Translations under genes and position numbers: made by a program
Notes under the pieces: model-generated
What the model saw: only the letters and a program-made list of their open reading frames with translations
Told to the model about the DNA's origin: nothing
Databases searched by the model: none
From: a virus
Direction: 5' to 3' (one strand)
IMG/VR virus record: IMGVR_UViG_2912521645_000003
Location: 1-15,641 of that record
DNA: 15,641 bases
In this document: piece after piece, positions 1 to 13,537 of the stretch
Position numbering within the stretch: position 1 is the first letter of the stretch
How the letters are laid out: each line of letters begins with the position of its first letter

Positions 1-1236
1 GTGGCAAAGCGCCAGACAAACCTACTTTCAGACATCAAGCTCAAGCACCTCGTGCGAGCCGGCTCGCCCGTCGCAAAGTCGGACGGTGCCGGGCTCACGT
101 TCACGCTCTCGGCCGCCGGTACCGCAACCTGGGTGCTGCGCTTCAGCCACGGCGGACGCCGGCATGAGCTCACGCTCGGTAACTATCCCGATCTCGCGCT
201 TACCGCCGCACGCAAGCTTGCCGCGGCAAAACGCGTCGAAGTCCAGCAAGGCACCAATCCGGCGGTAGAGAAACGCAAGGAGAGGGCGAGGAAAGACTGG
301 AGCGTGCGGCAGCTCATCGCGGACTATCGCGAACGCGTCTTGGTGACGCTCGCAAACAGCACACAGCGAAGCTACGGCCGCAACCTCGATCGTGTTGAGC
401 GTGGCATGGGTTCGCTGTCGGTGCGTGTCGTCGGCGCGGCCGACGTGGTTGCAGAGATCGAGCGCACGAAGCTCGGGTGGGTCGAGACGTTCACGCTCTG
501 GTGCGTGCTCAAGGCCATATTCAAGCACGCAGTCGGAAAGCGGTTGATCGACGCGAACCCGTGCGCGGGTGTCGCGCTGGAAGCGATCATCGGTAAGCGG
601 CCACCAGTGCGCCAGCGCCTGATGCTGACTCACGAAGAACTCAGCGTGCTCATGAATGCGAACATGCGCGACGTGAATCTCTATGCCGTGCGAATCGCGC
701 TCGCTACTGGGGTGCGTATCAGCGAGCTCTACACTTCGCTTCGCGCGAACCTTCATCTCGATGAAGCTCGATGGCATATCCCCGCGAGCAAAACAGGCCC
801 GGCAATGGACATTCCGCTTGCGCCGAGCGTGATCGAGTGGTTTGAGCGCTTGCTCGACCTGGCTGGAACGTCGGAATACATCCTGCCGGCCCGATTGAGC
901 AATCGCCTGGATCGGCACGATGGGGACACGCACGTATCGAAAGATGCCATACGCGAGGCAATCGATTATTGGATCGACAATCACGAGCCGCAGATTCGCC
1001 GGTTCACGCCACACGATTTGCGTAGCACGATGAAGAGCCACATGCGCAAGCTGGGCGTGTCCCGCGACATTTCCGAAATGTGCCTCAATCACAAGCTCGC
1101 CGGCGTCGAGGGGATCTACGACCAGTACACGTATTGGGACGAGCGAAAGGTAGCGCTAGAGCTGTGGGCGACCTACCTAATGACGCGCATGCGCAACGAA
1201 GAATGGAATGTGACGCCGATGAAACGATCGGCGTAA
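1..1236 (+). CDS. int: Tyrosine recombinase / phage integrase, P4-like with N-terminal arm-binding (DUF4102-type) domain
   Basis: 411-aa ORF starting on GTG at window base 1. The N-terminus (LSDIKLKHL...GLTFTLSAAGTATWVLRF...LGNYPDLALTAARKLAAA) is the typical P4-integrase arm domain. C-terminal catalytic signature is visible: R in ATGVRISEL, HDLRST (H-x-x-R), LNH, and Tyr in GIYDQYTY. Confidence 0.95.
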   Translation: MAKRQTNLLSDIKLKHLVRAGSPVAKSDGAGLTFTLSAAGTATWVLRFSHGGRRHELTLGNYPDLALTAARKLAAAKRVEVQQGTNPAVEKRKERARKDWSVRQLIADYRERVLVTLANSTQRSYGRNLDRVERGMGSLSVRVVGAADVVAEIERTKLGWVETFTLWCVLKAIFKHAVGKRLIDANPCAGVALEAIIGKRPPVRQRLMLTHEELSVLMNANMRDVNLYAVRIALATGVRISELYTSLRANLHLDEARWHIPASKTGPAMDIPLAPSVIEWFERLLDLAGTSEYILPARLSNRLDRHDGDTHVSKDAIREAIDYWIDNHEPQIRRFTPHDLRSTMKSHMRKLGVSRDISEMCLNHKLAGVEGIYDQYTYWDERKVALELWATYLMTRMRNEEWNVTPMKRSA

Positions 1237-1327
1237 TGGTTTGCCGCGCCTAGTTCGACGGGACGAATACCGGGTGCCCTACCCGGCCGGCGCGGCTCCT
1301 AGATAGGGCTTTGCTACGGGACAAGCG

Positions 1328-2086
1328 ATGGGTGTATTTCAATGGATCGTGGATGAGGATGGCCCCGAGGCACCATACTCCGATTTGCCGGGGATCGATA
1401 ACCTGCTTACGGGGATCCATAGGATGATGGAATGGGAGGGCGAGATACCGGGATCAGTCGCAATCTCCCCTACATTCGCCCAGCTTGAGGCCGGGGCCGA
1501 GTATGCGCTTGGGGAACTCGCCAAAGCCGAATTGAAATATCGGGCCGCTATGGAATCGAGCGGCGAGCCAATTTCCGATGACTACGCCATCGATCCTGTG
1601 GATATGCTCATTGAGCATATGGAATCGGCAACAGAAGAGGATTTGTTGCGCGACTACCCCAAGGGGTTGCCGGAAAACCAAGTTTATGTGCTCGGCGCAC
1701 TCGCGCTTGTATATGTGGATAGAGCTATCGGGCATCTCCTCCACAACAGATCTGTAGATGCGGTCAACGCTATGGCAAGGGCGTGTTCTGCCACCCATGC
1801 GGCGGGATTTTTTGATGGTCAAGATCAAGGGATAGCGTGGATTCAGCGCACCAACTCATCCAAAGGCGGGGCGGTTCGCAACGAGCCGTATAAGAAGCTG
1901 CAGAAATGGGCGAAGGCACGCTATCAAGCGAGAACGTGGAAATCGCCGCATCAAGCATCCCACGAACTGAGAGACTCGGTATTGGAACAGGCCGCTGCAC
2001 TTGGTGTAACTCTGAGCCCATACCGCGCACAGCAAACAATCTACGGATGGCTCCTTAGCGCGGACAAGGAGCCATCTCCAAAATAG
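1328..2086 (+). CDS. Hypothetical protein, orphan cargo between int and alpA (no family recognised)
   Basis: 252-aa ORF. No competing ORF of similar quality. Rare-for-host codons (AGA, AGG, ATA, TTG, GTA, TTT) and AT-ending codons are visibly more frequent than in flanking genes. No motif I can assign. Confidence 0.7.
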   Translation: MGVFQWIVDEDGPEAPYSDLPGIDNLLTGIHRMMEWEGEIPGSVAISPTFAQLEAGAEYALGELAKAELKYRAAMESSGEPISDDYAIDPVDMLIEHMESATEEDLLRDYPKGLPENQVYVLGALALVYVDRAIGHLLHNRSVDAVNAMARACSATHAAGFFDGQDQGIAWIQRTNSSKGGAVRNEPYKKLQKWAKARYQARTWKSPHQASHELRDSVLEQAAALGVTLSPYRAQQTIYGWLLSADKEPSPK

Positions 2087-2257
2087 TCGAGCGCAAAACA
2101 TTCGAGCGCATGCTACTCGAATACGAGTGCAAGCACCTGAATGCGGCTGCCTCGCCCTCGCCTGCTCTTGCCGACCACTTGTACTGCGTCAGCCTGCCGC
2201 CCGCCTACGTCAACACGGCACTCGGCTAGTTTCACGTGTTTCCCTGCTATTAAATCC

Positions 2258-2296
2258 GTATCGCCCGTCGCATTCTGAATCACGACGGCGCGATAC
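2258..2296. promoter_or_regulatory. Imperfect palindrome upstream of alpA (candidate operator)
   Basis: GTATCGCCCGTCG (2258-2270), 12-nt spacer, CGACGGCGCGATAC (2283-2296). The arms are reverse complements apart from one inserted base. It lies about 40 nt upstream of the alpA start. CGATAC recurs at 2327-2332. Confidence 0.25.
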
Positions 2297-2334
2297 TCGC
2301 CGGGCAGTGTCGCGCCATACTAGGAGCGATACTG

Positions 2335-2565
2335 ATGTCTCAACTCGCCAGCGCGCCACTCTCGAAAGCGCTCGTTTCGTTCGATTCCCTTCCCAATTCC
2401 GCACACGTTGATGTGCGGACTGTCGCCGGTCTCTATGGCTGCTCAGTGCCGACCGTCTGGCGTCGCGTTGCCTCCGGCCTCATCCCCGCTGCAAAGAAAT
2501 TCGGCCATTCGTCCCGCTGGAACGTCGGCGAACTCCGCACGAATCTGATGCCGGAGGCCGCATAA
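2335..2565 (+). CDS. alpA: AlpA-family (Phage_AlpA / excisionase-like MerR-fold) transcriptional regulator
   Basis: 76 aa. VRTVAGLYGCSVPTVWRRVASGLIPAAKKFGHSSRWNVGEL fits the AlpA pattern (HTH ... G-hydrophobic-P-x-P-x-K-x-G-x-x-x-R-W). SD AGGAG at 2322-2326. Confidence 0.85.
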   Translation: MSQLASAPLSKALVSFDSLPNSAHVDVRTVAGLYGCSVPTVWRRVASGLIPAAKKFGHSSRWNVGELRTNLMPEAA

Positions 2566-2566
2566 C

Positions 2567-2932
2567 ATGACGACGAAAAAAAAGGCCGACCAACAGGCCA
2601 GCCCGGACAAAGAGAATCTCAATTCGAACGCCAATGTTAACACGATGTTTTCGAAAAAGCCGCTCGGCAAAATCGATCGCGTGTTGTTCGAATTGCGTCG
2701 CGGGATCTCGTTGAATCGCTTCGACGCTGAGCGCCTGGGCGACCACTGCCTGAACACGACTATCTCGATTCTGCGCGCGGAGGGCTGGCTCATAACTGGC
2801 GAATGGGAAACTGTTCCGACCCGGTTCGGCAAAACGGCCCGCGTGCTCCGCTACCGCCTGACGGGATACCGCAACCCGGCAGAGGTCGCCGACGAAATCG
2901 CCGCGATCCTGGGCGAAGGGAGGACTGCATGA
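2567..2932 (+). CDS. Winged-helix DNA-binding protein, HTH_39-like
   Basis: 121 aa. LNRFDAERLGDHCLNTTISILRAEGWLITGEWETVPTRFGKTARVLRYRL matches the HTH_39-type pattern (target-like helix, x-R-I-x-x-L-R-x-x-G-x-x-I, then G-x-x-x-R-V-x-R-Y-x-L). SD GGAGG at 2553-2557. Starts 1 nt after the alpA stop. Confidence 0.75.
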   Translation: MTTKKKADQQASPDKENLNSNANVNTMFSKKPLGKIDRVLFELRRGISLNRFDAERLGDHCLNTTISILRAEGWLITGEWETVPTRFGKTARVLRYRLTGYRNPAEVADEIAAILGEGRTA

Positions 2933-2952
2933 TGCGTCCCTTCAAAAAAACC

Positions 2953-2982
2953 TTGCAGCCCGTAAACCGGCGCGCGTATACT
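2953..2982 (+). promoter_or_regulatory. Candidate sigma70 promoter TTGCAG-18-TATACT
   Basis: TTGCAG at 2953-2958 and TATACT at 2977-2982, in the 293-bp stretch between the 121-aa gene and the ATG at 3226. Confidence 0.3.
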
Positions 2983-3033
2983 TTTCGTGTGGCTGAGACA
3001 ACAGCCGCCGGGTTTGGCGACCTGAGATCTACA

Positions 3034-3063
3034 GGCGGACGACCGCCAAAGCGCGGTTTTTTT
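3034..3063 (+). terminator. Terminator-like element with two mutually exclusive hairpins followed by T7
   Basis: Hairpin A is GGCGG(3034-3038)-ACGA-CCGCC(3043-3047). Hairpin B is ACCGC(3042-3046)-CAAAGC-GCGGT(3053-3057), running directly into TTTTTTT (3057-3063). The stems are short (5 bp). Confidence 0.35.
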
Positions 3064-3225
3064 ACGTCCGCACGCCTCTGCGCGCACCTACGATCAATGG
3101 GTGGGCCGTGGCGGGGAGACGCTTGCGTCTGCCGGTTTCCTGTAGGCCGGTTCGCCAACCCTGTCACGTGCCCGCCCACCCCATTTGGCGATGGAAGGCG
3201 GGTTTCCTCACTACAGGAGGCCGCT

Positions 3226-3411
3226 ATGCGTGCTAACGCCCCTGCTCGTCCTGAGCAATCGCAACTTCCCCCGTCGTATTCCGAAATCATCAATCGCGCA
3301 CTGCGCGAAGCCGCACTCGCGCCCACCGTCTACGATGCGCTCGACATTTGCGGCGCCGTGATGGCGCAGCTCGCCGAACTCTGCCGTCAGGAGGAAGCGA
3401 GCCATGCGTGA
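3226..3411 (+). CDS. Hypothetical small protein (61 aa); alternative upstream start at 2929
   Basis: ATG at 3226 is preceded by AGGAGG (3215-3220) at 5-nt spacing. The same frame is open back to ATG 2929, which has GGGAGG at 2918-2923 and an ATGA overlap with the upstream stop. The 2929-3225 translation is R/G/P/C-rich and contains the hairpin/T7 element. Confidence 0.45.
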   Translation: MRANAPARPEQSQLPPSYSEIINRALREAALAPTVYDALDICGAVMAQLAELCRQEEASHA

Positions 3412-3598
3412 CGCCAACATGATTGAAGCCCTTCGCTACGCGCTGGCGAAGCAAGTACCCGACATGGAGCGCGGGTTCGTCATCCAAACGAACTATGGCG
3501 ATCTGGTGATCAACGCCGAGGACGCCGACCACTTCGCAGCACTGGCCCGAGTCATCCTCGGCGACAAGCTGGCCGCTGCGGAGGTGCGTCATGGTTGA
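3404..3598 (+). CDS. Hypothetical small protein (64 aa)
   Basis: ATG overlaps the upstream stop (ATGCGTGA). AGGAGG at 3389-3394. Confidence 0.65.
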   Translation: MRDANMIEALRYALAKQVPDMERGFVIQTNYGDLVINAEDADHFAALARVILGDKLAAAEVRHG

Positions 3599-3842
3599 CA
3601 CAATCAAGAGCCTTGACGATGCGCTTCGCGAAAGCATCGATGAGTCCAATATCGCAATCGAAGGATTCCAGCGAATCAGGGACTTGCTCAAAGTGATCGA
3701 GCATCTGGCAATCGCGAATGGAGTCGCCCATATCACGACCGTTGCCAAAGAAGCCTCTCTTATCGCGCTTGAATACGGCGACATTGCGAGTACAGGACGG
3801 GGAGCATTCGAAGCATCCCGCAAGGAGGTGCTTCATGGCTAA
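3591..3842 (+). CDS. Hypothetical small protein (83 aa)
   Basis: ATG overlaps the upstream stop (ATGGTTGA). GGAGG at 3580-3584, 6 nt from the ATG. Confidence 0.65.
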   Translation: MVDTIKSLDDALRESIDESNIAIEGFQRIRDLLKVIEHLAIANGVAHITTVAKEASLIALEYGDIASTGRGAFEASRKEVLHG

Positions 3843-4113
3843 CCTCCGATGCCGTCCGGGCGACTTGGCCCGCGTTATCCGCGCATGGAATCCGGCTCTT
3901 GTCGGCCGCATCGTCTTGGTCGGCACACTTCATTCGATCGGCGAGTCCGAATGGAATGTAACGCTACTCGGCGCTCCCGGCATGACGCTAACGAAGAACC
4001 GCAAGCGGCTCCGCATCGGCAATCGCATGCTCGCCCACGACTCGTATCTTGAGCCGCTACGCGGAGACGAACTACTCGGCCACGTCAACGAACGGGAGGC
4101 CAGCCATGCCTGA
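3835..4113 (+). CDS. Hypothetical protein (92 aa), prophage-type CRPGDLARV...GRIV motif
   Basis: Internal ATG at 3835 of the 3718..4113 ORF, chosen because AAGGAGG (3822-3828) lies 6 nt upstream and the start overlaps the upstream stop (ATGGCTAA). The N-terminal C-x-P-G-D-L-A-x-V...G-x-I-V pattern is common in small prophage proteins. Confidence 0.7.
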   Translation: MANLRCRPGDLARVIRAWNPALVGRIVLVGTLHSIGESEWNVTLLGAPGMTLTKNRKRLRIGNRMLAHDSYLEPLRGDELLGHVNEREASHA

Positions 4114-4342
4114 CCAGAAAATGCCCCGCCTCGAACGGGCTGTGCTGGAGGCGCGAGACAAATTCGCTCGTCTCGAAGCCCTGTTCCATGTGATCAAAGA
4201 GCGCTTGGAGGATGACTGTACCTACGAATGGCTGCTTGCCGACCTCGGCGCGGCTACGGCGGCTCAGTACGCAGTCGAAATGAATCAGATTGGCCAGCAG
4301 CATAGCGCTAAGCAGTCCTCACTAGGTATGGGAGGCGCATGA
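4106..4342 (+). CDS. Hypothetical small protein (78 aa)
   Basis: Internal ATG at 4106 of the 4049..4342 ORF. GGGAGG at 4094-4099, 6 nt upstream. Overlaps the upstream stop (ATGCCTGA). Confidence 0.65.
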   Translation: MPDQKMPRLERAVLEARDKFARLEALFHVIKERLEDDCTYEWLLADLGAATAAQYAVEMNQIGQQHSAKQSSLGMGGA

Positions 4343-4566
4343 GCATTTACGACCACGATCAGACCGTGTTGGAGGTTCAGAAGAGCGCCACGCAGCGGAT
4401 TCGAATCTCGCATCGCTGGTACAAGGGCCGGCGGTACGTCGACGTGCGCCTGATGGTTGTCGACCGGTCGGGCGAATTCGTGCCGACGCGGCAGGGAATC
4501 AGCATCCGCCTCAAGCTGCTCGCGCAGATCATTCAAGGTCTGACGCTGGCCGCACGGGAGGGCTGA
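4339..4566 (+). CDS. Possible PC4/p15-like ssDNA-binding protein (75 aa)
   Basis: RISHRWYKGRRYVDVRLMVVDRSGEFVPTRQGISIRLKLLAQIIQGL resembles the bacterial/phage PC4-like pattern (x-G-x-x-Y-V-D-I-R ... G-E-x-x-P-T-x-x-G-I-S-L). ATGA overlap with the upstream stop. GGGAGG at 4330-4335. Confidence 0.6.
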   Translation: MSIYDHDQTVLEVQKSATQRIRISHRWYKGRRYVDVRLMVVDRSGEFVPTRQGISIRLKLLAQIIQGLTLAAREG

Positions 4567-5114
4567 TGGCAAAGAAAGCGTGGTCCGATCCGCTCGGGCC
4601 GCACGTTCGAATCTATCACTCGCTGCTCAATACCCCAGCGTGGCGCGTTCTCGGCCCGTCTGCAGTGAAGTTGTACGTAGATATGCGAATGACGCTCAAC
4701 GGCTCGAACAACGGCAGCATCGGGGCTTCCCTGTCGCTGATGAAGCATAAGGGATGGACCGCCCCGACGACGCTCGCCAAGGCGCTGTACGAGCTGCGTG
4801 CGCTCGGTTTCATTGCCGTGACGATCGAAGGCGGCTTGCGGCAAGGTAGCCGCGTGCCGTCGCTCTACCGCTTCACGGACGTGGAAGTGTACGAGCAGCC
4901 GAAAACCGGCGTACAGGCGATAAAGGCTACTCACGACTACCGGGCTTTTGAGTCGGTACGTGAAGCCGAGCGAGCGCTCACCGAAGGATTGGAAAGACTT
5001 CGAACGGAGGGAAGGCAGAAGCAACAGAGCAGGAAAAAATCCCCTGTACAGAAACCGTACCCGTCCAATACAGAAACCGTACCCGAACCGCAGAATTTCC
5101 AGTACAGAAACTGA
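4566..5114 (+). CDS. Winged-helix protein, candidate iteron-binding replication initiator
   Basis: 182 aa. IYHSLLNTPAWRVLGPSAVKLYVDMRMTLNGSNNGSIGASLSLM...TTLAKALYELRALGFI is the pattern seen in small phage/plasmid replication-organiser N-termini. TGATG overlap with the upstream gene. GGGAGG at 4556-4561. The 3' end overlaps the iteron array. Confidence 0.7.
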   Translation: MAKKAWSDPLGPHVRIYHSLLNTPAWRVLGPSAVKLYVDMRMTLNGSNNGSIGASLSLMKHKGWTAPTTLAKALYELRALGFIAVTIEGGLRQGSRVPSLYRFTDVEVYEQPKTGVQAIKATHDYRAFESVREAERALTEGLERLRTEGRQKQQSRKKSPVQKPYPSNTETVPEPQNFQYRN

Positions 5115-5244
5115 ACAGGGAGACCCCTTTCCAGTACAGAAAACGAACAGGGAGCGAAAACGCCCGGAACGCCCGTTTCATAAGGGGTTTCGGGCGTTTT
5201 TTTATCATTTTTCGGCCTCGCAATCCCCTGTACAGAAAATGTAC
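5047..5244 (+). repeat. Iteron array plus AT-rich tract (candidate origin of replication)
   Basis: Core TACAGAAA occurs five times in direct orientation, starting at 5047, 5069, 5103, 5135 and 5231. Copies 1 and 2 are a perfect 17-mer (TACAGAAACCGTACCCG), 22 bp apart. Copies 3 and 4 share TTCCAGTACAGAAA..GAACAGGGAG, 32 bp apart. Copy 5 shares ATCCCCTGTACAGAAA with copy 1. TTTTTTTATCATTTTT (5197-5212) lies between copies 4 and 5. Confidence 0.6.
5168..5203 (+). terminator. Rho-independent terminator after the Rep-like gene
   Basis: AACGCCCG (5168-5175) and CGGGCGTT (5191-5198) are perfect reverse complements with a 15-nt loop. A T-run follows at 5197-5203. Confidence 0.55.
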
Positions 5245-5289
5245 TGCTTTATAGTATTGCCATACCTACGAGTTTTTCCGGAGCGTGCG

Positions 5290-5535
5290 ATGGATGCTAC
5301 GCGAATCATGTATCCCTGCATTTCATGCGGACGACAGTTCCAGTTCGGCCCACATCGTTACGATGGCAGGGTCGCGAAACTCTACGGCAATGCGCCAGTT
5401 TGCAACACGTGTTGGAACGCGAATTTCGACGGATGGGGTCCATCAGTCCAACCGAAGCTGCTCGCCGTGCTCAAGGAAATGGGACTTCCGGTACCTCCTC
5501 GTAACAAGAACGGCTGGCTTCCGCGCGGTGATTGA
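5290..5535 (+). CDS. Hypothetical zinc-ribbon protein (81 aa)
   Basis: Internal ATG at 5290 of the 4948..5535 ORF. Two CxxC pairs (CISCG and CNTCW). GGAG at 5279-5282. Candidate -10 TATAGT at 5250-5255, with iteron 5 lying over the -35 position. Confidence 0.6.
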   Translation: MDATRIMYPCISCGRQFQFGPHRYDGRVAKLYGNAPVCNTCWNANFDGWGPSVQPKLLAVLKEMGLPVPPRNKNGWLPRGD

Positions 5536-5578
5536 TCCCGCCTCTGAGTTATCCACAGGGGGTACAAAATCGGGGCGC

Positions 5579-5734
5579 AAAGGGTGCAAAAACGGCACCC
5601 TTTCGGGCGAAATTGGGACTGTTCCGGCGGAAATTGGGTCTGTTTGACCGGCACAAATACGCGTCAATCTCCCACAAACCCTTTGCCCGCAAGGCCGTGC
5701 GCGAAAGGGTGCAATCCAGCGCAAGGGAAAGGGT
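5579..5734. repeat. Repeat-dense intergenic control region (left half, split by the IS)
   Basis: AAAGGGTGCAA at 5579-5589 and 5703-5713. A third copy is split: 5727-5734 plus CAA at 7077-7079. Copy 1 sits in the palindrome AAGGGTGC-AAAAACG-GCACCCTT. GAAATTGGG[A/T]CTGTT direct repeats at 5609-5623 and 5630-5644 (21-bp period). Confidence 0.4.
5730..5734. repeat. Target-site duplication (left copy) GGGTG
   Basis: The 5 bp immediately outside the IS left terminus are identical to 7072-7076. Confidence 0.85.
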
Positions 5735-5766
5735 GTGGAGTTGACCCTGTAATCCCGGACACGGCG

Positions 5767-6654
5767 TCACACTAAAGTTGCTGAATCCATCGAGCGCCGG
5801 AACTCGCGGGGCGAGCGGTATTTCAGCGCGCTATGGGGATGCTTCTCGTTGTAATGCTCGAATGCGATGGCCAAGTTGTGTGCAGCAGTCGCCGCGTCCG
5901 GCTTCGGCATAAAGGCGACGTAATCGCGTTTCATGGTCTTCACGAAGCTCTCGGCCATGCCGTTACTTTGCGGGCTGCACACCGGCGTGGTCAATGGCTT
6001 CAGGCCAATGTCCATCGCAAACCGGCGTGTGTCGTCGGCTGTATAGCCTGAACCATTGTCGCTCAGCCACTCGATTTCGGACGGTGTATGCAGTTCGTCG
6101 CCAAACCGATTTTCCACTGCCGCCAGCATCACGTCGCGCACAATGTCGCCGCTGTGGCCCGCCGTCGTAGCAGCCCAGCTCATGGCCTCCCGGTCGCAGC
6201 AGTCCAGCGCGAACGTCACCCGCAGCGGTTCACCGTTGTCGCAGCGGAACTCGAAGCCGTCCGAACACCAACGCTGGTTGCTGCGCGCCACGGCCACCTT
6301 GCCATCGTGCCGACGTTGCGGCCGAGGCGGAGTCGGACGACGTTGCATCAGCAGACCATGCGTGCGCATGACGCGATAGATGCGCTTCGCATTGAACGGC
6401 ACCTGTCCGGCAGCAACACGTTCATTGCGCAACGTGCCCCAGACTCGGCGATAGCCATAGCTGGGCAATTCGCCGACGACTCGGCGGATTTCTTCGACCA
6501 CGCTCGCATCGTCGGTCTGCCGCGATTGACGGCCATCGCGCCACGTCGTCGGACGCGACAGTCGTGCCGATACGTTCGAGCGCGACACGCCGAGAACTTC
6601 ACAAACCAGTTTCACTGGTCGTCCTCCGGCAGCGAGGGCGAGTGCGCTATCCAT
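5767..6654 (-). CDS. IS3-family transposase OrfB (DDE integrase domain), IS2 InsD-like
   Basis: 295 aa. [37 protein letters not shown] and [18 protein letters not shown] match the IS2 InsD DDE region. Confidence 0.92.
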
Positions 6655-6977: not shown

Positions 6978-7071
6978 CACTTCCTGCCTGGTGTTAGTCA
7001 AAAACACAGTCTTATGCCTACCCGTTAGTTTAAGCGGGAGACCGTGTCCGGAGATTCAGGGGGCTGCTCCA

Positions 7072-7076
7072 GGGTG
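7072..7076. repeat. Target-site duplication (right copy) GGGTG
   Basis: Identical to 5730-5734, immediately outside the IS right terminus. Confidence 0.85.
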
Positions 7077-7109
7077 CAATATTCGACACCCTCCAAATCT
7101 CACCCCTCT

Positions 7110-7141
7110 CCCCCGGTAAGGCTCACTTATCCCCCCGGTAA
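7110..7141 (+). repeat. Direct repeat CCCCCGGTAA x2 (22-bp period)
   Basis: Copies at 7110-7119 and 7132-7141, in the right half of the split intergenic region upstream of the candidate packaging-operon promoter. Confidence 0.4.
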
Positions 7142-7201
7142 ATGCCGCCACGCGTCGCTGAAACGTTACGGTAACGATCCCCCTCCTCTCCGCCTCGCCT
7201 G

Positions 7202-7230
7202 TTGTAAACGTCCGCGATGTGGCAGATAAT
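7202..7230 (+). promoter_or_regulatory. Candidate sigma70 promoter TTGTAA-17-GATAAT for the packaging/head operon
   Basis: TTGTAA at 7202-7207 and GATAAT at 7225-7230, in a locally AT-rich patch (7225-7262) just upstream of the first ORF of the HNH-terS-terL cluster. Confidence 0.35.
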
Positions 7231-7259
7231 TGCCTGAAATCCATAATTCGAGCAATTAA

Positions 7260-7466
7260 ATGCAACCCAGAGACATGCCTCTGGCTGCTACTGCGCCTAA
7301 GTCCGAGCACTGCGCCATCGAGCAAATTGATGCGACTGTTGCGCACGCGCTGGCCGCGCGCGGCGAGTTGGAGCGAATCCTGTACCGCTGGGTCGGTGCG
7401 GGCACGATGCGCACACAACCGTCACGACGATTCCTGCCGCTGCCTCCGCCGAGGTCGATGCGATGA
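7260..7466 (+). CDS. Hypothetical small protein (68 aa; alternative start 7275)
   Basis: The ORF ends in an ATGA overlap with the HNH start, which suggests coupling. No convincing SD at either start. Confidence 0.35.
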   Translation: MQPRDMPLAATAPKSEHCAIEQIDATVAHALAARGELERILYRWVGAGTMRTQPSRRFLPLPPPRSMR

Positions 7467-7756
7467 GCGCACGTGTCCAACCGCGCACGCGCGGCAGCAA
7501 GTGGATGAAGGTCCGCGCCCGCATCCTTCGACGCGATCCGATCTGCGTGTTGTGTGCTGATCAGGACGTTGTGCGCGAGTCGGTTGTCGTGGACCACATC
7601 AAGCCGCTCGAGCATGGCGGCACCGACGCCGACGACAACCTCCGCGGGCTGTGTGCCGATCATCACGACCAGGTGACGCGACAGCAGTTCGGCCATCGGG
7701 AGCGGCGCAAGGCATTCGGGCCTGACGGCCTGCCGCTCGATGGCAGTTGGTCGTGA
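7463..7756 (+). CDS. HNH endonuclease (phage packaging-associated type)
   Basis: 97 aa. CVLC...VDHIKPLEHGGTDADDNLRGLCADHH is the HNH motif. It sits immediately upstream of terS/terL, as in HK97-like cos phages. Confidence 0.9.
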   Translation: MSARVQPRTRGSKWMKVRARILRRDPICVLCADQDVVRESVVVDHIKPLEHGGTDADDNLRGLCADHHDQVTRQQFGHRERRKAFGPDGLPLDGSWS

Positions 7757-7765
7757 CTTGCGACA

Positions 7766-7818
7766 GCAGCCGGGGGGCGGTCGATTTTCTGCGCTTCAAA
7801 AACCCGGAAACCGGCTGC
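7766..7818. promoter_or_regulatory. Inverted repeat in the HNH-terS spacer (candidate cos/terminase recognition region)
   Basis: GCAGCCGG (7766-7773, followed by GGGG) and CCGGCTGC (7811-7818, followed by CCCC) are perfect reverse complements. The small palindrome CCGGAAACCGG lies at 7804-7814. Confidence 0.25.
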
Positions 7819-7857
7819 CCCCTTCGCTTTCATAAACGTGGACAAAAAAGGTAAAAC

Positions 7858-8298
7858 ATGTCTCAACGCGGGCGGAAATCCGCCGCATCGATCGTAACGG
7901 CGCCAGCCGCGCCGATCGCGGCCGAACAGCGCCTTGCGCCGCCACTCCACCTGAGTGACGGCGAGCGCACGGTCTGGATGGAGGTCGTCAACGATCAACC
8001 GGCGAGCGCGTTCACGGCGACCCATGCGCCGCTGCTCGAAATGTACTGTCGTCACATCACGAACGCTCGCGTACTGGCCGAAGAGGTTTTGAATTTCGAA
8101 CGCGCATGGCTCGCAGACGACGATGGCCTGAAACGCTACGACCGGCTGCTCGCCATGTCTGAGCGCGAGAGTCGCGCGGCCTCGTCGCTCGCTACGCGAC
8201 TGCGCATCACGCGGCAGGCCGTCGAGCATCCGACGACGGTAGGCCGTTCGCTGTCGAATCAGAAAAAGGCAAGGAAGCCATGGGAACTCCCCGCGTAA
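7858..8298 (+). CDS. terS: Terminase small subunit, P27 family
   Basis: 146 aa. N-terminal GRKSAAS...AP..L, W..V and LLE.YC....ARVLAEEV... followed by a C-terminal basic tail, typical of P27-family (Terminase_4) TerS. Position between HNH and TerL. Confidence 0.85.
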   Translation: MSQRGRKSAASIVTAPAAPIAAEQRLAPPLHLSDGERTVWMEVVNDQPASAFTATHAPLLEMYCRHITNARVLAEEVLNFERAWLADDDGLKRYDRLLAMSERESRAASSLATRLRITRQAVEHPTTVGRSLSNQKKARKPWELPA

Positions 8299-9800
8299 AG
8301 CGCGTCTCCCGCGGCGAGCGCAACATCCGATGGATCGAAGAACACTGCCGCATCCCTGAAGGCCGGCTCGTCGGGCAGCCCGTCAAGCTCACGAAAGAGC
8401 AACGCGGCTGGATCAAGCAGATTTACGACACGCCGACGCGCACGTTCATCCTCTCAATGGCGCGCAAGAACGCCAAAACGGCCCTCTCAGCGTTCCTCGT
8501 GTTGCTTCACCTCGTCGGCCCGGAGGCGCGGCCGAACAGCCAGCTATACAGCGCAGCGCAATCCCGCGACCAGGCGGCCGTGCTGTTCGAACTCGCGGCG
8601 AAGGTTGTCCGCATGTCCGAGGATCTGTCGCAGTACGTCACCATCCGCGACACGGCGAAGGAGCTGCTGTGTCACGACCTCGGCACGATCTACAAGGCGC
8701 TGTCGGCCGACGCAGCGACCAAATTCGGCCTGAGCCCCGCACTCACGATCCATGACGAGCTCGGCCAGGTCAAAGGCCCACGCTCCCAACTGTACGAAGC
8801 ACTGGAAACGGCGAGCGCAGCGCAGGAAAGCCCGCTATCGATCGTCATCAGCACGCAGGCCCCTACCGATGGTGACCTGCTCAGCTTGCTCATCGACGAC
8901 GCGCTCAGCGGTGCCGATCCGCGTCTGAAGGTGGCGCTCTATACCGCGCCGCTCGACATGGATCCATTCGGCGATGAGGCGATCCGGCTGGCGAACCCGC
9001 ATTTCGACGCGTTCATGAATCGCGAGGAAGTGCGCCGCATGGCGTCCGATGCGAAGCGCCTGCCGAGCCGCGAATCGGCCTATCGCAACTTGGTTTTGAA
9101 TCAGCGCGTCGAAGCTCGCAATCCGTTTGTCGCGCGCGCAATCTGGATGGAGAACGGCGGCGAACCTGCCGAGCTGGACGGCGAGGACGTTTATGGCGGC
9201 CTCGATTTATCGAGCGTGAGTGACTTGACGGCGCTCGTTCTGCTGTCGGAGGCCGGCGACGTTCATCCGACATTCTGGCTACCGGCGGACGGTCTGGAAG
9301 CGAAGGCGCGCGCCGATCGCGTGCCTTACGACGTGTGGGCGCGTGGTGGCCTGCTTCAGACGACGCCCGGCAGCGCCATCGAATACGAATTCGTCGCCGA
9401 ATACTTGCGCGGCGTGTTCGACCGCTGCAACGTGCGCGCGCTCGCGTTCGACCGGTACAACATGCGATTCCTGAAACCGTGGCTTGAGCGGGTCGGCTTC
9501 ACGGATGAAGAGTTGAGCCGGTTCGTCGAATTCGGCCAGGGCTTCGTTTCCATGTCGCCAGCTATCCGCGAGCTAGAAGCGCGGCTGCTCGCGCGCAAGC
9601 TCCGACACGGCGGGCACCCCGTCTTGCAAATGTGTGCCGTGAACACGGTCGCCGTTTCCGATCCGGCGGGCAACCGCAAATTCACGAAACAGAAGTCAAC
9701 GGGCCGCATCGACGGCATGGTGGCTTTGGCGATGGCGGTCGGCGCCACGCAACAAAATGCGACGGAATCCGAAATCGAACCTCAAATGTTCTTCATTTAG
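8280..9800 (+). CDS. terL: Terminase large subunit (Terminase_1 / HK97-like)
   Basis: 506 aa. N-terminal IRWIEEHCRIPEG...GQPVKLTKEQRGWIKQIYD. Walker A-like ARKNAKT. Walker B LTIHDELG. C-terminal nuclease region including GRIDGMVALAMAV. Confidence 0.92.
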   Translation: MGTPRVKRVSRGERNIRWIEEHCRIPEGRLVGQPVKLTKEQRGWIKQIYDTPTRTFILSMARKNAKTALSAFLVLLHLVGPEARPNSQLYSAAQSRDQAAVLFELAAKVVRMSEDLSQYVTIRDTAKELLCHDLGTIYKALSADAATKFGLSPALTIHDELGQVKGPRSQLYEALETASAAQESPLSIVISTQAPTDGDLLSLLIDDALSGADPRLKVALYTAPLDMDPFGDEAIRLANPHFDAFMNREEVRRMASDAKRLPSRESAYRNLVLNQRVEARNPFVARAIWMENGGEPAELDGEDVYGGLDLSSVSDLTALVLLSEAGDVHPTFWLPADGLEAKARADRVPYDVWARGGLLQTTPGSAIEYEFVAEYLRGVFDRCNVRALAFDRYNMRFLKPWLERVGFTDEELSRFVEFGQGFVSMSPAIRELEARLLARKLRHGGHPVLQMCAVNTVAVSDPAGNRKFTKQKSTGRIDGMVALAMAVGATQQNATESEIEPQMFFI

Positions 9801-9802
9801 CC

Positions 9803-9830
9803 TTGACATTGGCACTTTATGCGTGATAAT
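9803..9830 (+). promoter_or_regulatory. Near-consensus sigma70 promoter TTGACA-16-GATAAT between terL and the protease-capsid gene
   Basis: TTGACA at 9803-9808 and GATAAT at 9825-9830, inside a 56-bp AT-rich spacer. No SD is evident before ATG 9857. Confidence 0.4.
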
Positions 9831-9856
9831 GACGACACTCACGCAATAAAACGCCA

Positions 9857-11749
9857 ATGAATCGACAAATTTCGAAATTTATCACCAAGCAAACCGCGAA
9901 GGCTTCGAATAAAGCGTTCTCGCGGTTCGAGGTGAAGAACCTCGACGACGGTTCGCGGGTGCTCAAGGGCATCGCCTCGACGCCGACGCCAGATCGCGTA
10001 GGCGATACCGTCGTTCCCGAAGGCATCCAGTTCAAGACGCCTTTCCCGCTGCTGTGGCAGCACGACCCGAGCAAGCCCATCGGCACCGTCAACAAAATGA
10101 CGATCACGGCAGCCGGTGCAGAGATTGAAGCAACGATCGCCCCGCCAGGCACCGCTGCGTACATCGACGAGGCATACAACCTCATCAAGGCCGGCCTAGT
10201 ACCGGGCCTGTCCATCGGATTCCGCCCTCTTGACGCCGTGTACGACAAGGCGACGGGCGGCTTTCTCATCAAATCCTGTGAGCTGTTCGAACTCAGCGCC
10301 GTGACGATCCCGGCAAACGCTGATGCGGCAGTTCAATCGATCAAGGCGCATGACAAATCCCGTGCGGGAGCGCCCGTCGTGCGTTTGAGTGCTCCCACCA
10401 TCAAGGAATCTGACATGACCATTGCTGAACGACTCAAGGCTCTCGCGAAAAAGCGAGCGGAACACATCGCACGCAAAAAGGCGCTGATGGACGGCGCGGA
10501 CGCAGACGGCGGCCGCACGCTGAACGAAGCCGAGTCGACGGAATACGACCAGCTCGACGCCGAGCTGAAGTCGCTCGCCGCCCACGAAACGCGCCTCAAG
10601 GAACAGCAATCGATCGAAGCCAAGTCGGCTGTCCCGGTCGCTGGCGGCCCGGCGGCACACTCGCCGGTCATCGTGAAGCCGAACGTCACCAAGGGCACTG
10701 CGTTCACGCGCTACGCGATCGCACTCGCGCGCTCGAAGGGCAACCTCATGCAAGCGGCAGAGATTGCGAAGCAATGGAAGGATTCAACGCCCGAAGTCGA
10801 AATCGTGCTCAAGGCGGCGGTCGCAGCAGGCACCACGACTGATCCGGCGTGGGCCGGGCCGCTCGTCCAGTATCAGGACATGGCGGCCGAGTTCATCGAG
10901 CTGCTGCGCCCGGCTACGATCGTCGGTCGCATCGAAGGTCTTCGTCGTGTGCCGTTCAATGTCCGCATCCCTGGCCAGGCGACGGGTTCGTCGGTCGGTT
11001 GGGTTGGCGAAGGCAAGCCCGCGCCCGTGTCGGCACTGGCGTTCAATACGACGACGCTAGGCTTCTCGAAGGTGGCAGGCATCGTCGCGATCACGGAAGA
11101 GCTTGCGCGCTTCTCGACGCCGAGCGCCGAAGGGGTCATCCAACAGGATCTCATTTCGACAATCAGCCAATTCCTCGACGGGCAATTCATCGACCCGTCT
11201 GTTGAAGCCGGCGCGAATGGCCTGTCGCCCGCGTCGATCACGAACGGCGTCAAGGCGATTCCGGCATCCGGCAAGGATGCGGAAGCCGTGCGCGCTGACG
11301 TGAAGAAAGTCTTCCAGGCGTTCATCAAGGCCAATCTGTCGGTCGCCGGCGCGGTCTGGATCATGTCGGAAACGACGGCCCTCTCGCTCTCGCTGATGCT
11401 GAACGTCATGGGCCAGCCGGAATTCCCGGGCCTGACCATGGCCGGCGGCACGTTCTTCGGCCTGCCCGCGATCCTCTCGCAGACGGTCGGCGACAACATC
11501 GTGCTCGCGAAGGCAAGCGAAATCCTGGTCGCTGACGACGGCGGTGTGACGCTCGACGTTAGCCGCGAAGCATCGCTGCAGATGGACAGCGCGCCCGTCG
11601 CAGGTGCTACGGAGCTTGTGTCGCTGTGGCAAAGCGGCTTCATCGCCATGAAGGCCGAGCGCTTCATCAACTGGAAGCGTCGCCGCGTCGAAGGCGTCCA
11701 GTACATTTCCGGCGCGGCCTACGGCGACGCGGCGACCGACGGCGCGTAA
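9857..11749 (+). CDS. HK97-family prohead serine protease (S78) fused in frame to HK97-family major capsid protein
   Basis: 630 aa. The N-terminal ~170 aa hold protease motifs (LKGIASTPTPDRVGDTV, LLWQHD, GLSIGF, ELFELSAVTIPAN). A coiled-coil, delta-domain-like segment follows (ERLKALAKKRAEHIARKKAL...LKEQQ). The C-terminal ~300 aa form a Phage_capsid-type region. An internal in-frame ATG at 10415 has AAGGA at 10403-10407. Confidence 0.9.
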   Translation: MNRQISKFITKQTAKASNKAFSRFEVKNLDDGSRVLKGIASTPTPDRVGDTVVPEGIQFKTPFPLLWQHDPSKPIGTVNKMTITAAGAEIEATIAPPGTAAYIDEAYNLIKAGLVPGLSIGFRPLDAVYDKATGGFLIKSCELFELSAVTIPANADAAVQSIKAHDKSRAGAPVVRLSAPTIKESDMTIAERLKALAKKRAEHIARKKALMDGADADGGRTLNEAESTEYDQLDAELKSLAAHETRLKEQQSIEAKSAVPVAGGPAAHSPVIVKPNVTKGTAFTRYAIALARSKGNLMQAAEIAKQWKDSTPEVEIVLKAAVAAGTTTDPAWAGPLVQYQDMAAEFIELLRPATIVGRIEGLRRVPFNVRIPGQATGSSVGWVGEGKPAPVSALAFNTTTLGFSKVAGIVAITEELARFSTPSAEGVIQQDLISTISQFLDGQFIDPSVEAGANGLSPASITNGVKAIPASGKDAEAVRADVKKVFQAFIKANLSVAGAVWIMSETTALSLSLMLNVMGQPEFPGLTMAGGTFFGLPAILSQTVGDNIVLAKASEILVADDGGVTLDVSREASLQMDSAPVAGATELVSLWQSGFIAMKAERFINWKRRRVEGVQYISGAAYGDAATDGA

Positions 11750-11761
11750 GCGGAGAACGTC

Positions 11762-11941
11762 ATGCAAACCTATGAGGTAGCCGTGGCCTTCCCCTATGCG
11801 GGGCGCACGCGGCACGTCGGCGAGCGAATCGAGATCAGTGACCCGAATCATGTCCGACTGCTGATCCTCCTCCGGAAGATCCGCGAGCCCGCATCGAAGC
11901 GTTCCACGTACAAGCGCCGCGACATGCGGCCGGAGGGCTGA
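11762..11941 (+). CDS. Hypothetical small protein (59 aa), below the ORF-track size cutoff
   Basis: Hand translation gives MQTYEVAVAFPYAGRTRHVGERIEISDPNHVRLLILLRKIREPASKRSTYKRRDMRPEG. GGAG at 11753-11756. The stop overlaps the portal start (TGATG). Confidence 0.5.
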   Translation: MQTYEVAVAFPYAGRTRHVGERIEISDPNHVRLLILLRKIREPASKRSTYKRRDMRPEG

Positions 11942-13230
11942 TGCGGCTCTTCTCGTGGATGCGGAAAGCCGCCCCGCCACTTCCGGTTGGCGGTGGCAGC
12001 TCGATTGCCGGCGTCGTGCGCGAACCGTTCGCGGGCGCGTGGCAGGCCAGTATGGGCGTTGATGGCCGCCACGACCTGCTCGCGTTCTCGGCCGTGTACG
12101 CGTGCGTGGATCGCATCGCCTCGGACATTTCGAAACTCGGCATCCGGTACGTGAAGCAGATCGGCAATATCTGGCAGGACGCCAGTGCGCCTCGCTTCAC
12201 GGGGCCGCTGCGCCGGCCGAATCCGTACCAGAATCGAATTCAGTTCGTGAAGGCATGGCAGGTGTCGAAGCTGCTCGCCGGCAACACCTATGTCCTGCTT
12301 GTTCGCGACATGCTGCGCAATGTGGTCGCAATGTACGTGCTCGACCCGACACGCGTTGTTCCGCTCGTCGCGCCCAGCGGTGCGGTGTTCTATCAGGTGG
12401 CCGCCGACCCGCTGCGCGGCCTGCCAGAGAAAGTCACGATTCCGGCGTCCGAGATCGTCCACGATCGCGGTATCTGCCCGTGGCATCCGCTCATTGGTGT
12501 ATCGCCGATCGTTGCGGCAGCCGCGGCCGGCACGATGGGAAACCGTATCCAGCAGAACAGCCGGAAGTTCTTCGGGAATATGTCGCGGCCTGGCGGCATC
12601 CTGTCCGCGCCCGGCAAGATCAGCGACGAAACCGCGAACCGGCTGAAGACCCATTGGGAAACGAACTACGGCGGCGAAAACGCCGGCCGTTTGGCTGTGG
12701 TGGGTGACGGGTTGAAGTACGAAACCGTCATGATGACCGCGACGGATGCTCAGCTCGTTGAACAACTGCGTTGGGCCGTTGAGGACGTCGCACGCTGCTA
12801 TCACGTCCCGCTCTACAAGATCGGTGCCGACCCGACCGGCTCCAAGACGGCGGCCAACATCGGCGCGCTCGAACAGTCGTACTACACCGATTGCCTGCAA
12901 GCCCCAATCGAAGAGCTCGAGCTCTGTCTCGATGACGGTTTCGAAGTCCCGGACGGTCAGGGGTTTGACGTTGATGTGCGCGGGCTGTTGCGCATGGATC
13001 CGGCCGCACGATATGACGCGCACTCAAAAGCCGTAGGCGGTGGCTGGATGGCCCCGAACGAGGCGCGCGCTGCCGAGAACATGGCGCCGGTTCCGGGCGG
13101 CGATACGCCCTACCTCCAACAGCAGAATTACTCGCTGCGTGCGCTCGCCGAGCGCGACAAGAGTCCGGCGCCGAGCAGTCCCATGACGGCCAGCATGCCT
13201 GAATCAACGGAACCGACGCATGGCAATTAA
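11941..13230 (+). CDS. Phage portal protein, HK97 family
   Basis: 429 aa. AVYACVDRIASDISKL, NPYQNRIQF...LLAGNTYVL, SPI........G......N.RKFFGN..RPGGIL and YHVPLYKIG fit the HK97-type portal family. Confidence 0.92.
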   Translation: MRLFSWMRKAAPPLPVGGGSSIAGVVREPFAGAWQASMGVDGRHDLLAFSAVYACVDRIASDISKLGIRYVKQIGNIWQDASAPRFTGPLRRPNPYQNRIQFVKAWQVSKLLAGNTYVLLVRDMLRNVVAMYVLDPTRVVPLVAPSGAVFYQVAADPLRGLPEKVTIPASEIVHDRGICPWHPLIGVSPIVAAAAAGTMGNRIQQNSRKFFGNMSRPGGILSAPGKISDETANRLKTHWETNYGGENAGRLAVVGDGLKYETVMMTATDAQLVEQLRWAVEDVARCYHVPLYKIGADPTGSKTAANIGALEQSYYTDCLQAPIEELELCLDDGFEVPDGQGFDVDVRGLLRMDPAARYDAHSKAVGGGWMAPNEARAAENMAPVPGGDTPYLQQQNYSLRALAERDKSPAPSSPMTASMPESTEPTHGN

Positions 13231-13537
13231 ACAACTCGTCTCATTCAATCGCGCACTTTCGCATCTGCGCGTAGAGGCTGGCGACGATGACGACGCGATC
13301 AAGGATCTGATCGACGCGGCCAGCGACATCGTCGTGGACTACCTGAAACTCAAGGCAATCCCCGAGACTTGGGCGCTCGAAGACGGCGACACTGCAAGCA
13401 CAGTCCCCGGAGCAGTACGCTCGGCCGTCCTACTCGTGCTCGGCACCCTATACGATGACCGCGAAGGCACGACCGACCCGCTCACACCAGCGGTCGAATC
13501 GCTGCTCATGCGCTTGCGCGATCCGGCGGTGGCTTGA
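13220..13537 (+). CDS. Head-tail connector/adaptor, gp6-like (Phage_connect_1)
   Basis: 105 aa. LSHLRVEAGDDDDAIKDLIDAASDIVVDYL is the characteristic gp6-like N-terminal motif. The start overlaps the portal 3' end. Confidence 0.85.
   Translation: MAIKQLVSFNRALSHLRVEAGDDDDAIKDLIDAASDIVVDYLKLKAIPETWALEDGDTASTVPGAVRSAVLLVLGTLYDDREGTTDPLTPAVESLLMRLRDPAVA

Follow-up and report, generated by a model that had tools for sequence, protein, structure and literature searches.

We analysed a stretch of 15,641 nucleotides, here called the window (positions 1 to 15,641 of the IMG/VR record IMGVR_UViG_2912521645_000003), which is part of chromosome CP008914.2 of Burkholderia thailandensis (assembly GCA_000808035.2). 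It belongs to a head-only, tail-less element that a P4-family integrase inserted into the last codons of rng, the gene for RNase G, and whose genes for head and packaging are intact and evolve under purifying selection. The element is probably an integrative satellite of 16.8 kb (18.2 kb with an insertion sequence, IS) that encodes its own capsid and DNA packaging and would obtain tails and lysis, and probably also a head-closure protein, from a helper phage. A first-pass annotation, made from the window's letters alone, had already described it as head-only, tail-less and integrative, and this description holds between the attachment (att) repeats, where no tail or lysis families were found. 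Related loci are cited below by L numbers, and coordinates are those of the window unless a locus is named. The packaging and head module comprises the following features:

7260-7466, + strand, 68-aa open reading frame (ORF), also called in the second copy on the same chromosome, L010
7463-7756, + strand, HNH endonuclease (PF01844; phrog_2323, E 5e-23)
7858-8298, + strand, TerS (phrog_12559, E 1.8e-54)
8280-9800, + strand, TerL (phrog_9, E 3e-111; PF03354 and PF20441)
9857-11749, + strand, fused S78 prohead protease and HK97-type major capsid protein, 630 aa (PF04586 and PF05065)
11762-11941, + strand, 59-aa ORF, found at the same position in phages with this head module
11941-13230, + strand, portal (PF04860, E 8e-83)
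13220-13537, + strand, Ad1, HK97 gp6-like head-tail adaptor (PF05135, phrog_40)

Pfam and PHROG scans placed the integrase, HNH, TerS, TerL, protease-capsid, portal and gp6-like adaptor genes where the first-pass annotation had seen them, and the fused protein matched phrog_617 over its full length (E 1.8e-149). When all ORFs between the att repeats were searched against Pfam, PHROG and PADLOC, no tail or lysis gene was detected. In agreement with the earlier description, the Pfam and PHROG scans also gave no tail, tape-measure, baseplate, lysis, primase or helicase family before the tRNA gene that follows Ad1. The protease-capsid fusion and the order terL, protease-capsid, portal had been regarded as departures from the usual layout, but both are standard for a known type of phage head module. 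The fusion matched 1178 phage records and is present in Stx and Salmonella FSL SP-016 phages with 42-44% identity and in a Pseudomonas prophage with 56%; the layout of these phages (HNH, TerS, TerL, protease-capsid, small ORF, portal, Ad1) is identical. Since the fusion and the gene order occur in tailed phages, they are inherited traits. Temperate siphophages (Stx1/Stx2, FSL SP-016, the Pseudomonas prophage L020 and Burkholderia vB_SBP9) thus share the head gene order with the element at a protein identity of 42-56%. In contrast to the element, which ends at Ad1 and has 16.8 kb, they go on to head closure, tail completion, tail tube, chaperones, tape measure and lysis and reach about 46-54 kb in the records examined. 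No phage was close at the DNA level among 50,697 records, the best match having 74% identity in terL only, and a near-identical full-length prophage, which the first-pass annotation had named as the sign of a deletion remnant, was not among them.

The insertion, located in the 3' end of rng, spans 18,185 bp (16,844 bp minus the IS) and begins about 150 bp left of the window. At both ends of the element the last 27 bp of rng, AGCAGTACGACATCGTGCTGATGTAGG, are present as an exact direct repeat. In extrapolated window coordinates, the attL core lies at -204 to -178, left of the window, and the attR core at 17981-18007, which is 2.4 kb past the right edge of the window and 4.4 kb right of the adaptor gene. 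The attR copy, 18.2 kb downstream, directly precedes a xanthine/uracil permease gene. The motif ATTGGTAGC occurs four times in 32 kb, as a tandem pair just inside each repeat (two copies at -62 to -42 and two at 17892-17912, again extrapolated) and nowhere else, a distribution that fits arm-type integrase sites. The G+C content is 0.55-0.63 within the element and 0.69 in its flanks. An empty site, which the first-pass annotation had proposed to look for in related genomes, was found in B. pseudomallei L024; here rng is followed by the xanthine permease, PAE and PlcR genes, and neither the island nor a tRNA is present. The terminal rng codons are GTC TTG ATG TGA in this island-free locus (7245-7271) and GTG CTG ATG TAG in the island-bearing genome, and they encode the same residues. 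From this difference, the element appears to supply the terminal codons on integration. The 27-bp core contains the imperfect dyad ACATC-GTGCT-GATGT.

These borders differ from those drawn at first. The element had been delimited as positions 1 to 13537, its attL had been expected at the 3' end of a tRNA or tmRNA gene, and the matching repeat was to be sought at 13538-13606 and beyond; the true ends lie outside the window, in the 27-bp rng repeats, with attR far to the right. The left neighbour of the integrase gene is rng, and no tRNA was found left of the integrase. The tRNA-Met gene that follows Ad1 was considered as a border and ruled out, since it is missing from the empty site and the true repeats copy the rng 3' end; in the 32-kb region, the tRNA 3' end was repeated over no more than 11 nt. 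Although the bracketed region is larger than the one first proposed, it contains none of the tail and lysis genes that would have marked a phage.

More than 20 related Burkholderia elements, gathered through protein clusters and IMG/VR, share a common backbone that consists of int, regulators, a gene for a PC4-like protein, a gene for a 182-aa winged-helix protein with iterons, and the HNH, TerS, TerL, protease-capsid, portal and Ad1 genes. Two integrase types, only 25% identical to each other, occur in this family, and the cargo after Ad1 varies. Seventeen IMG/VR proviruses of 12.5-21 kb from isolate genomes, with a capsid identity of 93-96%, carry the whole backbone as judged by tblastn, which detected neither a tail-tube nor a tape-measure gene in them. 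The genes for TerS, TerL, capsid, portal and Ad1 have kept their full length in 15 of 17 loci, and for the concatenated head genes (5412 nt) the ratio of nonsynonymous to synonymous substitution rates (dN/dS) was 0.06-0.13 in every pair.

Heads of the SPP1 and HK97 types normally depend on a head-closure protein for DNA retention. A head-closure gene (PF05521) follows Ad1 in L015, L017 and L019, with an ATGA overlap in the distant relatives. In the window no head-closure ORF follows Ad1, and nothing recognisable as one remains in the window or in L010. Across the copies of the B. pseudomallei complex head closure was lost in several ways, at least four, as is evident from what is left of the gene:

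L039 and L040, remnant with a TGG-to-TGA nonsense codon
L030 and L032, 32-codon stump
L034, remnant with an in-frame stop
L027, long remnant without a start codon
L011 type, short scar

L011 and L033 share the scar and the cargo, and their divergence therefore postdates the loss of head closure. They differ at 144 of 5412 nt with a dN/dS of 0.10, which argues that the head genes stayed useful when the element had no head-closure gene of its own. Most simply, the helper would provide the head-closure protein along with the tail.

The IS lies upstream of the packaging genes, and its limits were placed by alignment to the uninterrupted relatives L010 and L011:

5736-7071, - strand, IS3-family IS of 1336 bp with orfA (6612-7007) and orfB (5767-6654); HTH_Tnp_1, rve and rve_3

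It has terminal inverted repeats (TGGAG...CTCCA) and is flanked by a 5-bp target duplication, GGGTG, at 5731-5735 and 7072-7076. The IS and its duplication had been recognised before, with a length of 1337 bp that has to be corrected by one; the distance of about 12.2 kb given for int start to adaptor stop without them agrees with the 12,196 bp that remain after removal. Between the origin and the packaging genes, the IS splits a conserved stretch of non-coding DNA, which holds GGGTGCAA repeats and an inverted repeat.

Several observations weigh against a functional satellite. Head closure, normally required to hold the DNA inside, is absent, and the capsid of the element may thus be insufficient by itself. 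Its capsid protein is similar to ones from phage records about 46-69 kb long, neither a primase nor a helicase is encoded, and the part of the 182-aa protein as initiator is argued from its position and the iterons. The IS between the origin and HNH could cut packaging-gene expression or damage cos. In some relatives there are head-closure genes in decay, a fragment of the neck, a tail-assembly gene similar to lambda I or a tape-measure gene standing alone, and the copies L036, L041 and L042 are broken. What goes beyond an integrated and conserved element, including its dependence on a helper, we infer. Much of this would also be expected of a defective prophage, that is, a siphophage that lost its tail, lysis and lysogeny modules and whose remainder is inert and decaying. 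The scars and pseudogenes directly after Ad1, which arose in at least four ways, the stray neck, tape-measure and tail-assembly genes in L015, L017, L039 and L040, the IS and the broken copies, and a head module of ordinary phage type all point in this direction, and the stray tail-related genes of the distant relatives indicate that the lineage descends from a phage by erosion. An inert remnant is nevertheless unlikely: dN/dS is about 0.1 over 5.4 kb of head genes in all pairs, including the pair that diverged after the loss of head closure, and the five head genes remain intact in nearly all loci. In addition, this backbone of 12 kb is found with two unrelated integrases and att sites, between which it has moved with exchange of cargo, and at either end the att core and the arm sites are undamaged. 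The left arm lacks repressor, replication and lysis genes of the phage type and has instead an integrase, helix-turn-helix (HTH) proteins and an RNA switch of the satellite type, and a near-identical full phage is absent from the records searched.

Purifying selection on head genes in an element with neither tail genes nor head closure could also mean that the capsids serve a host-domesticated or self-sufficient element, similar to a gene transfer agent (GTA) or forming tail-less, DNA-filled capsids, and not the hijacking of helper tails. Release of tail-less capsids that meet tails later has been described in nature for phage-inducible chromosomal islands that form capsids (cf-PICIs) (10.1101/2025.02.11.637232). 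We consider this very improbable for the present element, which varies between strains, is bounded by att sites, carries an integrase and can exchange both integrases and cargo; such traits are typical of mobile elements and not of a locus fixed in the host. The lack of lysis genes likewise counts against a GTA-like or self-sufficient capsid, and the HNH-terminase genes lie beside a conserved non-coding region, which suggests that the element packages its own DNA. A more serious possibility, although not the one we favour, is that the family works and that this copy is disabled, with the IS separating the early and replication operon from the HNH-terminase-head operon. The IS sits within a non-coding stretch that is uninterrupted in L010, L011 and L012, its genes are on the opposite strand, and the split stretch, with its GGGTGCAA repeats and inverted repeat, could hold a late promoter or cos. 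On the other side, the insertion is clean with its 5-bp duplication and breaks no gene, the head genes of the IS-bearing copy are all intact, and promoter-like sites are present downstream of the IS (7202-7247), although such matches were no commoner than in shuffled sequences.

The helper-dependent satellite that we favour was compared with the cf-PICIs as defined by de Sousa 2023 (PMC10085698) and a preprint (10.1101/2025.02.11.637232). The prototype is EcCIEDL933 of E. coli, and the SatelliteFinder cfPICI model has 11 core components and forbids tails and holins (PMC10085698). By our count, the element should reach 8-9 of the 11. The element agrees with this class in being an att-bounded integrative island with an integrase at one end and a small regulator and replication arm. 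As in the class, it supplies HNH, TerS, TerL, portal, protease, capsid and head-tail adaptor itself, lacks tail and holin genes and carries a variable region of accessory or defence genes behind the packaging operon. It also falls in the cf-PICI size range of about 10-18 kb, with 18,185 bp including and 16,844 bp excluding the IS. The order of its genes (hnh-terS-terL-protease/capsid-portal-adaptor) is unlike that of proteobacterial cf-PICIs, in which capsid, protease, portal and connectors precede hnh-terS-terL; fusion of protease and capsid has been reported in Firmicutes variants (PMC10085698). Further differences are the lack of pri-rep (no ORF has a primase or helicase domain), in place of which the 182-aa winged-helix protein and iterons are found, a head module from another phage lineage, that of the Stx, SP-016 and Pseudomonas prophage type, and control by what is probably a C4-type antisense RNA. 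Whereas adaptor and connector are both satellite-encoded in cf-PICIs and set tail specificity, the head-tail connector (head closure) is missing here. An AlpA, MerR or Stl regulator lies next to int in cf-PICIs; at this position the element has an int-alpA RNA motif and a 76-aa HTH protein that stays below threshold (23.1 versus 27 bits). The first-pass designation as a cf-PICI-like satellite is therefore the best reading and most of the defining traits are present, but it does not extend to the borders, the connector, pri-rep and the gene order of proteobacterial cf-PICIs. The element would work like a cf-PICI and is not a clean member of the class.

P4-like satellites are similar in several respects: their integrase is of the P4 family and has an arm-binding domain, a small HTH protein occupies the AlpA position, immunity is based on RNA, and they integrate beside the end of a conserved gene. 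In contrast to them, the element lacks an alpha primase-helicase, matched no sid, psu or delta families and encodes a full head, so that it does not remodel a helper head. Tentatively, the relatives could be seen as a Burkholderiaceae lineage of independent capsid-forming satellites, with an exchangeable immI-type RNA gate that allows heteroimmune copies, a minimal winged-helix initiator in place of a primase, and repeated loss of head closure with capsid, portal, terminase and Ad1 kept under selection, stealing both stopper and tail. Literature searches returned no paper describing Burkholderia cf-PICIs and none linking C4 RNA to PICIs. If the satellite reading is true, capsid-forming satellites reach the Burkholderia pseudomallei complex, including a select-agent pathogen, and their islands carry defence and toxin-antitoxin cargo (HEPN with GmrSD, Panacea) and even an initiator tRNA. 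The lifestyle of own head and stolen tail would then have arisen again from a different phage head lineage, and theft of the stopper would be a deeper piracy than that described for cf-PICIs. The 'proviruses' of this type in IMG/VR and in genome annotations, about 12-21 kb in length, would probably be satellites and not defective phages.

The first-pass annotation had recorded no CI/Cro-like genes before the tRNA, in agreement with the family scans. A region for a C4 antisense RNA had gone unnoticed, and it lies directly upstream of a chain of early genes:

2953-3218, + strand, antisense-RNA immunity region of the phage P1 immI type
2953-2982, + strand, promoter-like TTGCAG-17-TATACT upstream of the C4 RNA
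3014-3020, + strand, box a1, TTGGCGA
3029-3035, + strand, box b1, CTACAGG
3041-3063, + strand, hairpin with a run of seven T
3093-3183, + strand, C4 RNA (RF01695; Rfam, 68.6 bits versus a gathering score of 45)
3185-3191, + strand, box a2
3211-3218, + strand, box b2, CTACAGGA, which overlaps the GGAGG ribosome-binding site of the ORF starting with ATG at 3226
3226-3411, 3404-3598, 3591-3842, 3835-4113 and 4106-4342, + strand, five small ORFs with overlapping ends

The a and b boxes are complementary to the junction (positions 60-66) and the second-hairpin loop (positions 46-53) of the C4 RNA. On the + strand of the window, CTACAGG occurs at the b1 and b2 positions only, b2 being located inside CTACAGGAGGccgctATG. 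C4 RNA scored above the gathering score in L010, L011, L017 and L019 as well (63-66 bits). Loop and boxes co-vary across about 20 elements, in which four b types (CTACAGGA, AACGTTGG, CGTACTGGA and CGTCTCTGGA) and three a types (TTGGCG(A/T), TTGACAG and ATTGGAGT) were distinguished. The second copy on the chromosome, L010, has the b box AACGTTGG where the window has CTACAGGA; as the two copies in one genome carry different b boxes, they should be heteroimmune. Among the roughly 20 elements sampled, the CTACAGGA type was seen in the window alone.

Each stop of the five-ORF chain overlaps the next start by 8 nt. This arrangement is conserved in relatives and suggests translational coupling; the five ORFs gave no family matches. 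Altogether seven ORFs lie behind the C4 switch, from 3226 to the end of the 182-aa gene, all overlapping or abutting and with a single shared base at the last junction. By its layout, the C4-type region probably stands in for a CI/Cro repressor, the absence of which would be explained by its presence. In P1, the c4 antisense RNA reportedly controls icd-ant, a finding said to be that of Citron and Schuster in 1990. The element shares with P1/P7 immI a C4 RNA within its own operon that is flanked on both sides by complementary a and b boxes, a downstream b box over the ribosome-binding site of the following ORF, and specificity types that differ between co-resident elements. It differs in that small ORFs, the PC4-like protein and the candidate initiator would be under control instead of icd-ant, and in that the antirepressor of relatives with ANT is upstream of the RNA. 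The region also resembles the CI RNA immunity of satellite P4, which is said to go back to the work of Deho and Ghisotti.

The chain leads into the candidate replication region:

4339-4566, + strand, PC4-like protein (PF02229, E 4e-11)
4566-5114, + strand, 182-aa winged-helix protein, candidate replication initiator
5047-5244, + strand, five iterons TACAGAAANNGNAC, candidate replication origin (5 matches versus 0 expected in 200 shuffles)
5291-5535, + strand, 81-aa Cys-rich ORF (CxxC...CxxC), no family match

PC4-like proteins form a family of single-stranded-DNA binding proteins, and the gene is present in every relative examined at gene level except L015, which gave no PC4 match. An AlphaFold2 model of the 182-aa protein (mean pLDDT 77) has a winged helix and a long C-terminal helix. 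Foldseek retrieved generic winged-helix matches only (MarR-like and RTP, best E 0.025), a sequence search of the PDB gave nothing meaningful, and no match was obtained in Pfam, PHROG or NCBIfam. The family is found across Burkholderiales, one member being titled 'replication protein' in UniRef. Three observations make the protein a candidate initiator, which is not proof: the 3' end of its gene runs into the iterons, it occupies the slot of a 910-aa PriCT/Toprim/DUF927 primase in L019 (Caballeronia), and its gene has a dN/dS of 0.12-0.14. The iterons seen in the first-pass annotation are real, and of its Rep-like protein with a winged HTH the fold is shown, the Rep role being a candidate one. 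Between the iterons and the conserved non-coding region, a low-GC segment of 300 bp (5272-5571) interrupts the homology to L010, L011 and L012; this segment with the 81-aa ORF is, judged by the alignment, a small inserted gene.

Taken together, these features would permit the following cycle. In the resting state, the C4 RNA would block translation of the first early ORF, and the block would extend through the overlapping ORFs to the PC4-like protein and the 182-aa initiator. A helper phage, or a signal via the upstream HTH proteins, would relieve the block, upon which the element would excise and replicate from its five iterons. HNH, TerS and TerL would package unit genomes with a cos-type cut into procapsids of portal and protease-capsid protein, and Ad1 would cap the portal. 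Head-closure protein and tails of the helper would finish the particle, and helper lysis would free it. The predictions are that compensatory mutations in the C4 loop and the b2 box switch immunity and that the supply of helper head-closure protein decides particle infectivity. Head closure and tails are both encoded by Burkholderia siphophages of the vB_SBP9 type. The Ad1 of vB_SBP9 was considered for hints about the helper; its identity is 50% overall and 67-69% in the final 48 residues by tblastn, but with the portal 54% identical too, it is not clearly mosaic and was kept as a lead only.

The left arm of the element, upstream of the C4 region, carries the following features:

1-1236, + strand, P4-family tyrosine integrase (Arm-DNA-bind_3, PF13356, and Phage_integrase, PF00589; phrog_1)
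1243-1308, + strand, int-alpA RNA motif (RF02996; Rfam, 57.8 bits versus a gathering score of 35.8), directly after the integrase stop
1328-2086, + strand, 252-aa ORF, no family
2335-2565, + strand, small 76-aa HTH protein at the AlpA position (HTH_17, below threshold)
2567-2932, + strand, 121-aa winged-helix protein (HTH_39; PF14090, E 2e-4)

The integrase is 75% identical to that of an element from Paraburkholderia tropica which is likewise flanked by copies of the rng 3' end. The int-alpA RNA motif was also seen in L010 (2528-2594). For the 252-aa ORF no match was found in Pfam, PHROG, NCBIfam or PADLOC; its slot is variable, with 297-aa or DUF6387 proteins in relatives and a replacement in L011 and L025. 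A small HTH gene is indeed present where the first-pass annotation had called alpA, but the name itself is not borne out: the HTH_17 match is below the cut-off, and BLASTP found no similarity to the PF05930 AlpA proteins of relatives. The slot of the 121-aa protein is taken by an ANT/pRha antirepressor in some relatives (ANT in L010, L015 and L017).

Nucleotide homology to every relative ends at the stop codon of Ad1, the last backbone gene. The segment that follows holds:

13572-13600, + strand, promoter-like site of the tRNA gene
13607-13683, + strand, tRNA-Met(CAT), 69 bp after Ad1, the only tRNA found (ARAGORN, Rfam)
13698-13715, + strand, terminator-like hairpin of the tRNA gene
14258-14668, - strand, 136-aa partner that overlaps the Panacea gene (phrog_19071)
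14665-15240, - strand, SocA/Panacea antitoxin-domain protein (PF13274, E 3e-15)
15381-15641, + strand, PrtN-family DNA-binding protein (PF11112, E 3e-29)
16328-16816 (extrapolated; 13109-13597 of L005), - strand, 162-aa membrane protein with several hydrophobic segments, no family match

The segment after Ad1 would thus be a swappable cargo bay, in which relatives carry HEPN and GmrSD genes. Since the tRNA-Met is missing from the empty site L024, it is carried cargo and not a border; its C1 end and the GGG/CCC pairs of the anticodon stem would make it an initiator tRNA. The Panacea-domain gene and its 136-aa partner are probably a toxin-antitoxin pair, and PADLOC gave no matches on the cargo. 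Pseudomonas PrtN, a 'pyocin activator', activates tailocin genes; it is speculation that the satellite protein of this family might act on late genes of a helper or a tailocin. The 2.4 kb between the window and attR contain an excisionase-like 213-aa HTH protein, the 162-aa membrane protein, a 150-aa ORF and the arm sites. The 162-aa protein is the sole membrane protein of the element, and a holin-like or abortive-infection role is possible.

As to the relatives, L010 is a second, different copy on the same chromosome (CP008914.2, 2043460-2065349), about 105 kb away. It has a different integrase and different cargo, and ANT replaces the 121-aa protein; the PC4-like, 182-aa and head genes are common to both copies. 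There is no IS at its origin-HNH junction, and several IS copies lie in its cargo. In the B. pseudomallei relatives L011-L014 and L025, the backbone is found at tRNA-Arg(CCT) with HEPN and GmrSD_N cargo, and it also occurs at rng; for the tRNA-Arg(CCT) elements no exact att repeat of at least 14 nt was detected in the loci examined. The cargo genes, HEPN (RiboL-PSP/MAE_28990) and GmrSD_N (DUF262), are located at 13824-15571 of L011 and are also present in L029, L033, L036, L041 and L042. They are likely an anti-phage defence pair, and a truncated second integrase after them suggests tandem islands. When a genome collection was scanned with the capsid protein, there was one distant metagenome-assembled genome among the matches listed, with 42% identity. 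Ralstonia 'phages' of 12.9-18.7 kb, which had come up as adaptor matches and resembled satellites, were set aside as probable prophage fragments; the one examined, ON170149.1 (12.9 kb), holds a 936-aa ORF of tape-measure size.

The more distant relatives retain more of the neck. In B. gladioli (77%), Ad1, a lambda-I-like tail-assembly gene and head closure are present. In the Paraburkholderia tropica relative L015 (87%), Ad1 is accompanied by head closure and a neck/tail-completion gene, and a lone tape-measure gene encodes 928 aa with no tail-tube gene present. L015 shares the arm repeat described above and is bounded by rng 3'-end copies at 942-968 and 18582-18608; its core is reverse-complemented relative to the integrase and arm sites, and the element therefore lies opposite in orientation to rng. 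The Caballeronia relative (74%) has a gene set canonical for satellites and encodes int, two AlpA proteins, the PC4-like protein, the 910-aa PriCT/Toprim/DUF927 primase, the head genes, Ad1 and head closure. At L019 (13941-21872, Caballeronia sp. LZ001), about 400 bp separate the end of this satellite relative from terL in a complete prophage of the siphophage type with TerL, portal, ClpP, capsid, Ad1, head closure, tail completion and tail tube, and the arrangement may be helper-adjacent or helper-embedded. The unclustered 17.9-kb 'putative prophage' PI-406E-1 (PMC2920897) may be a further element of the same family.

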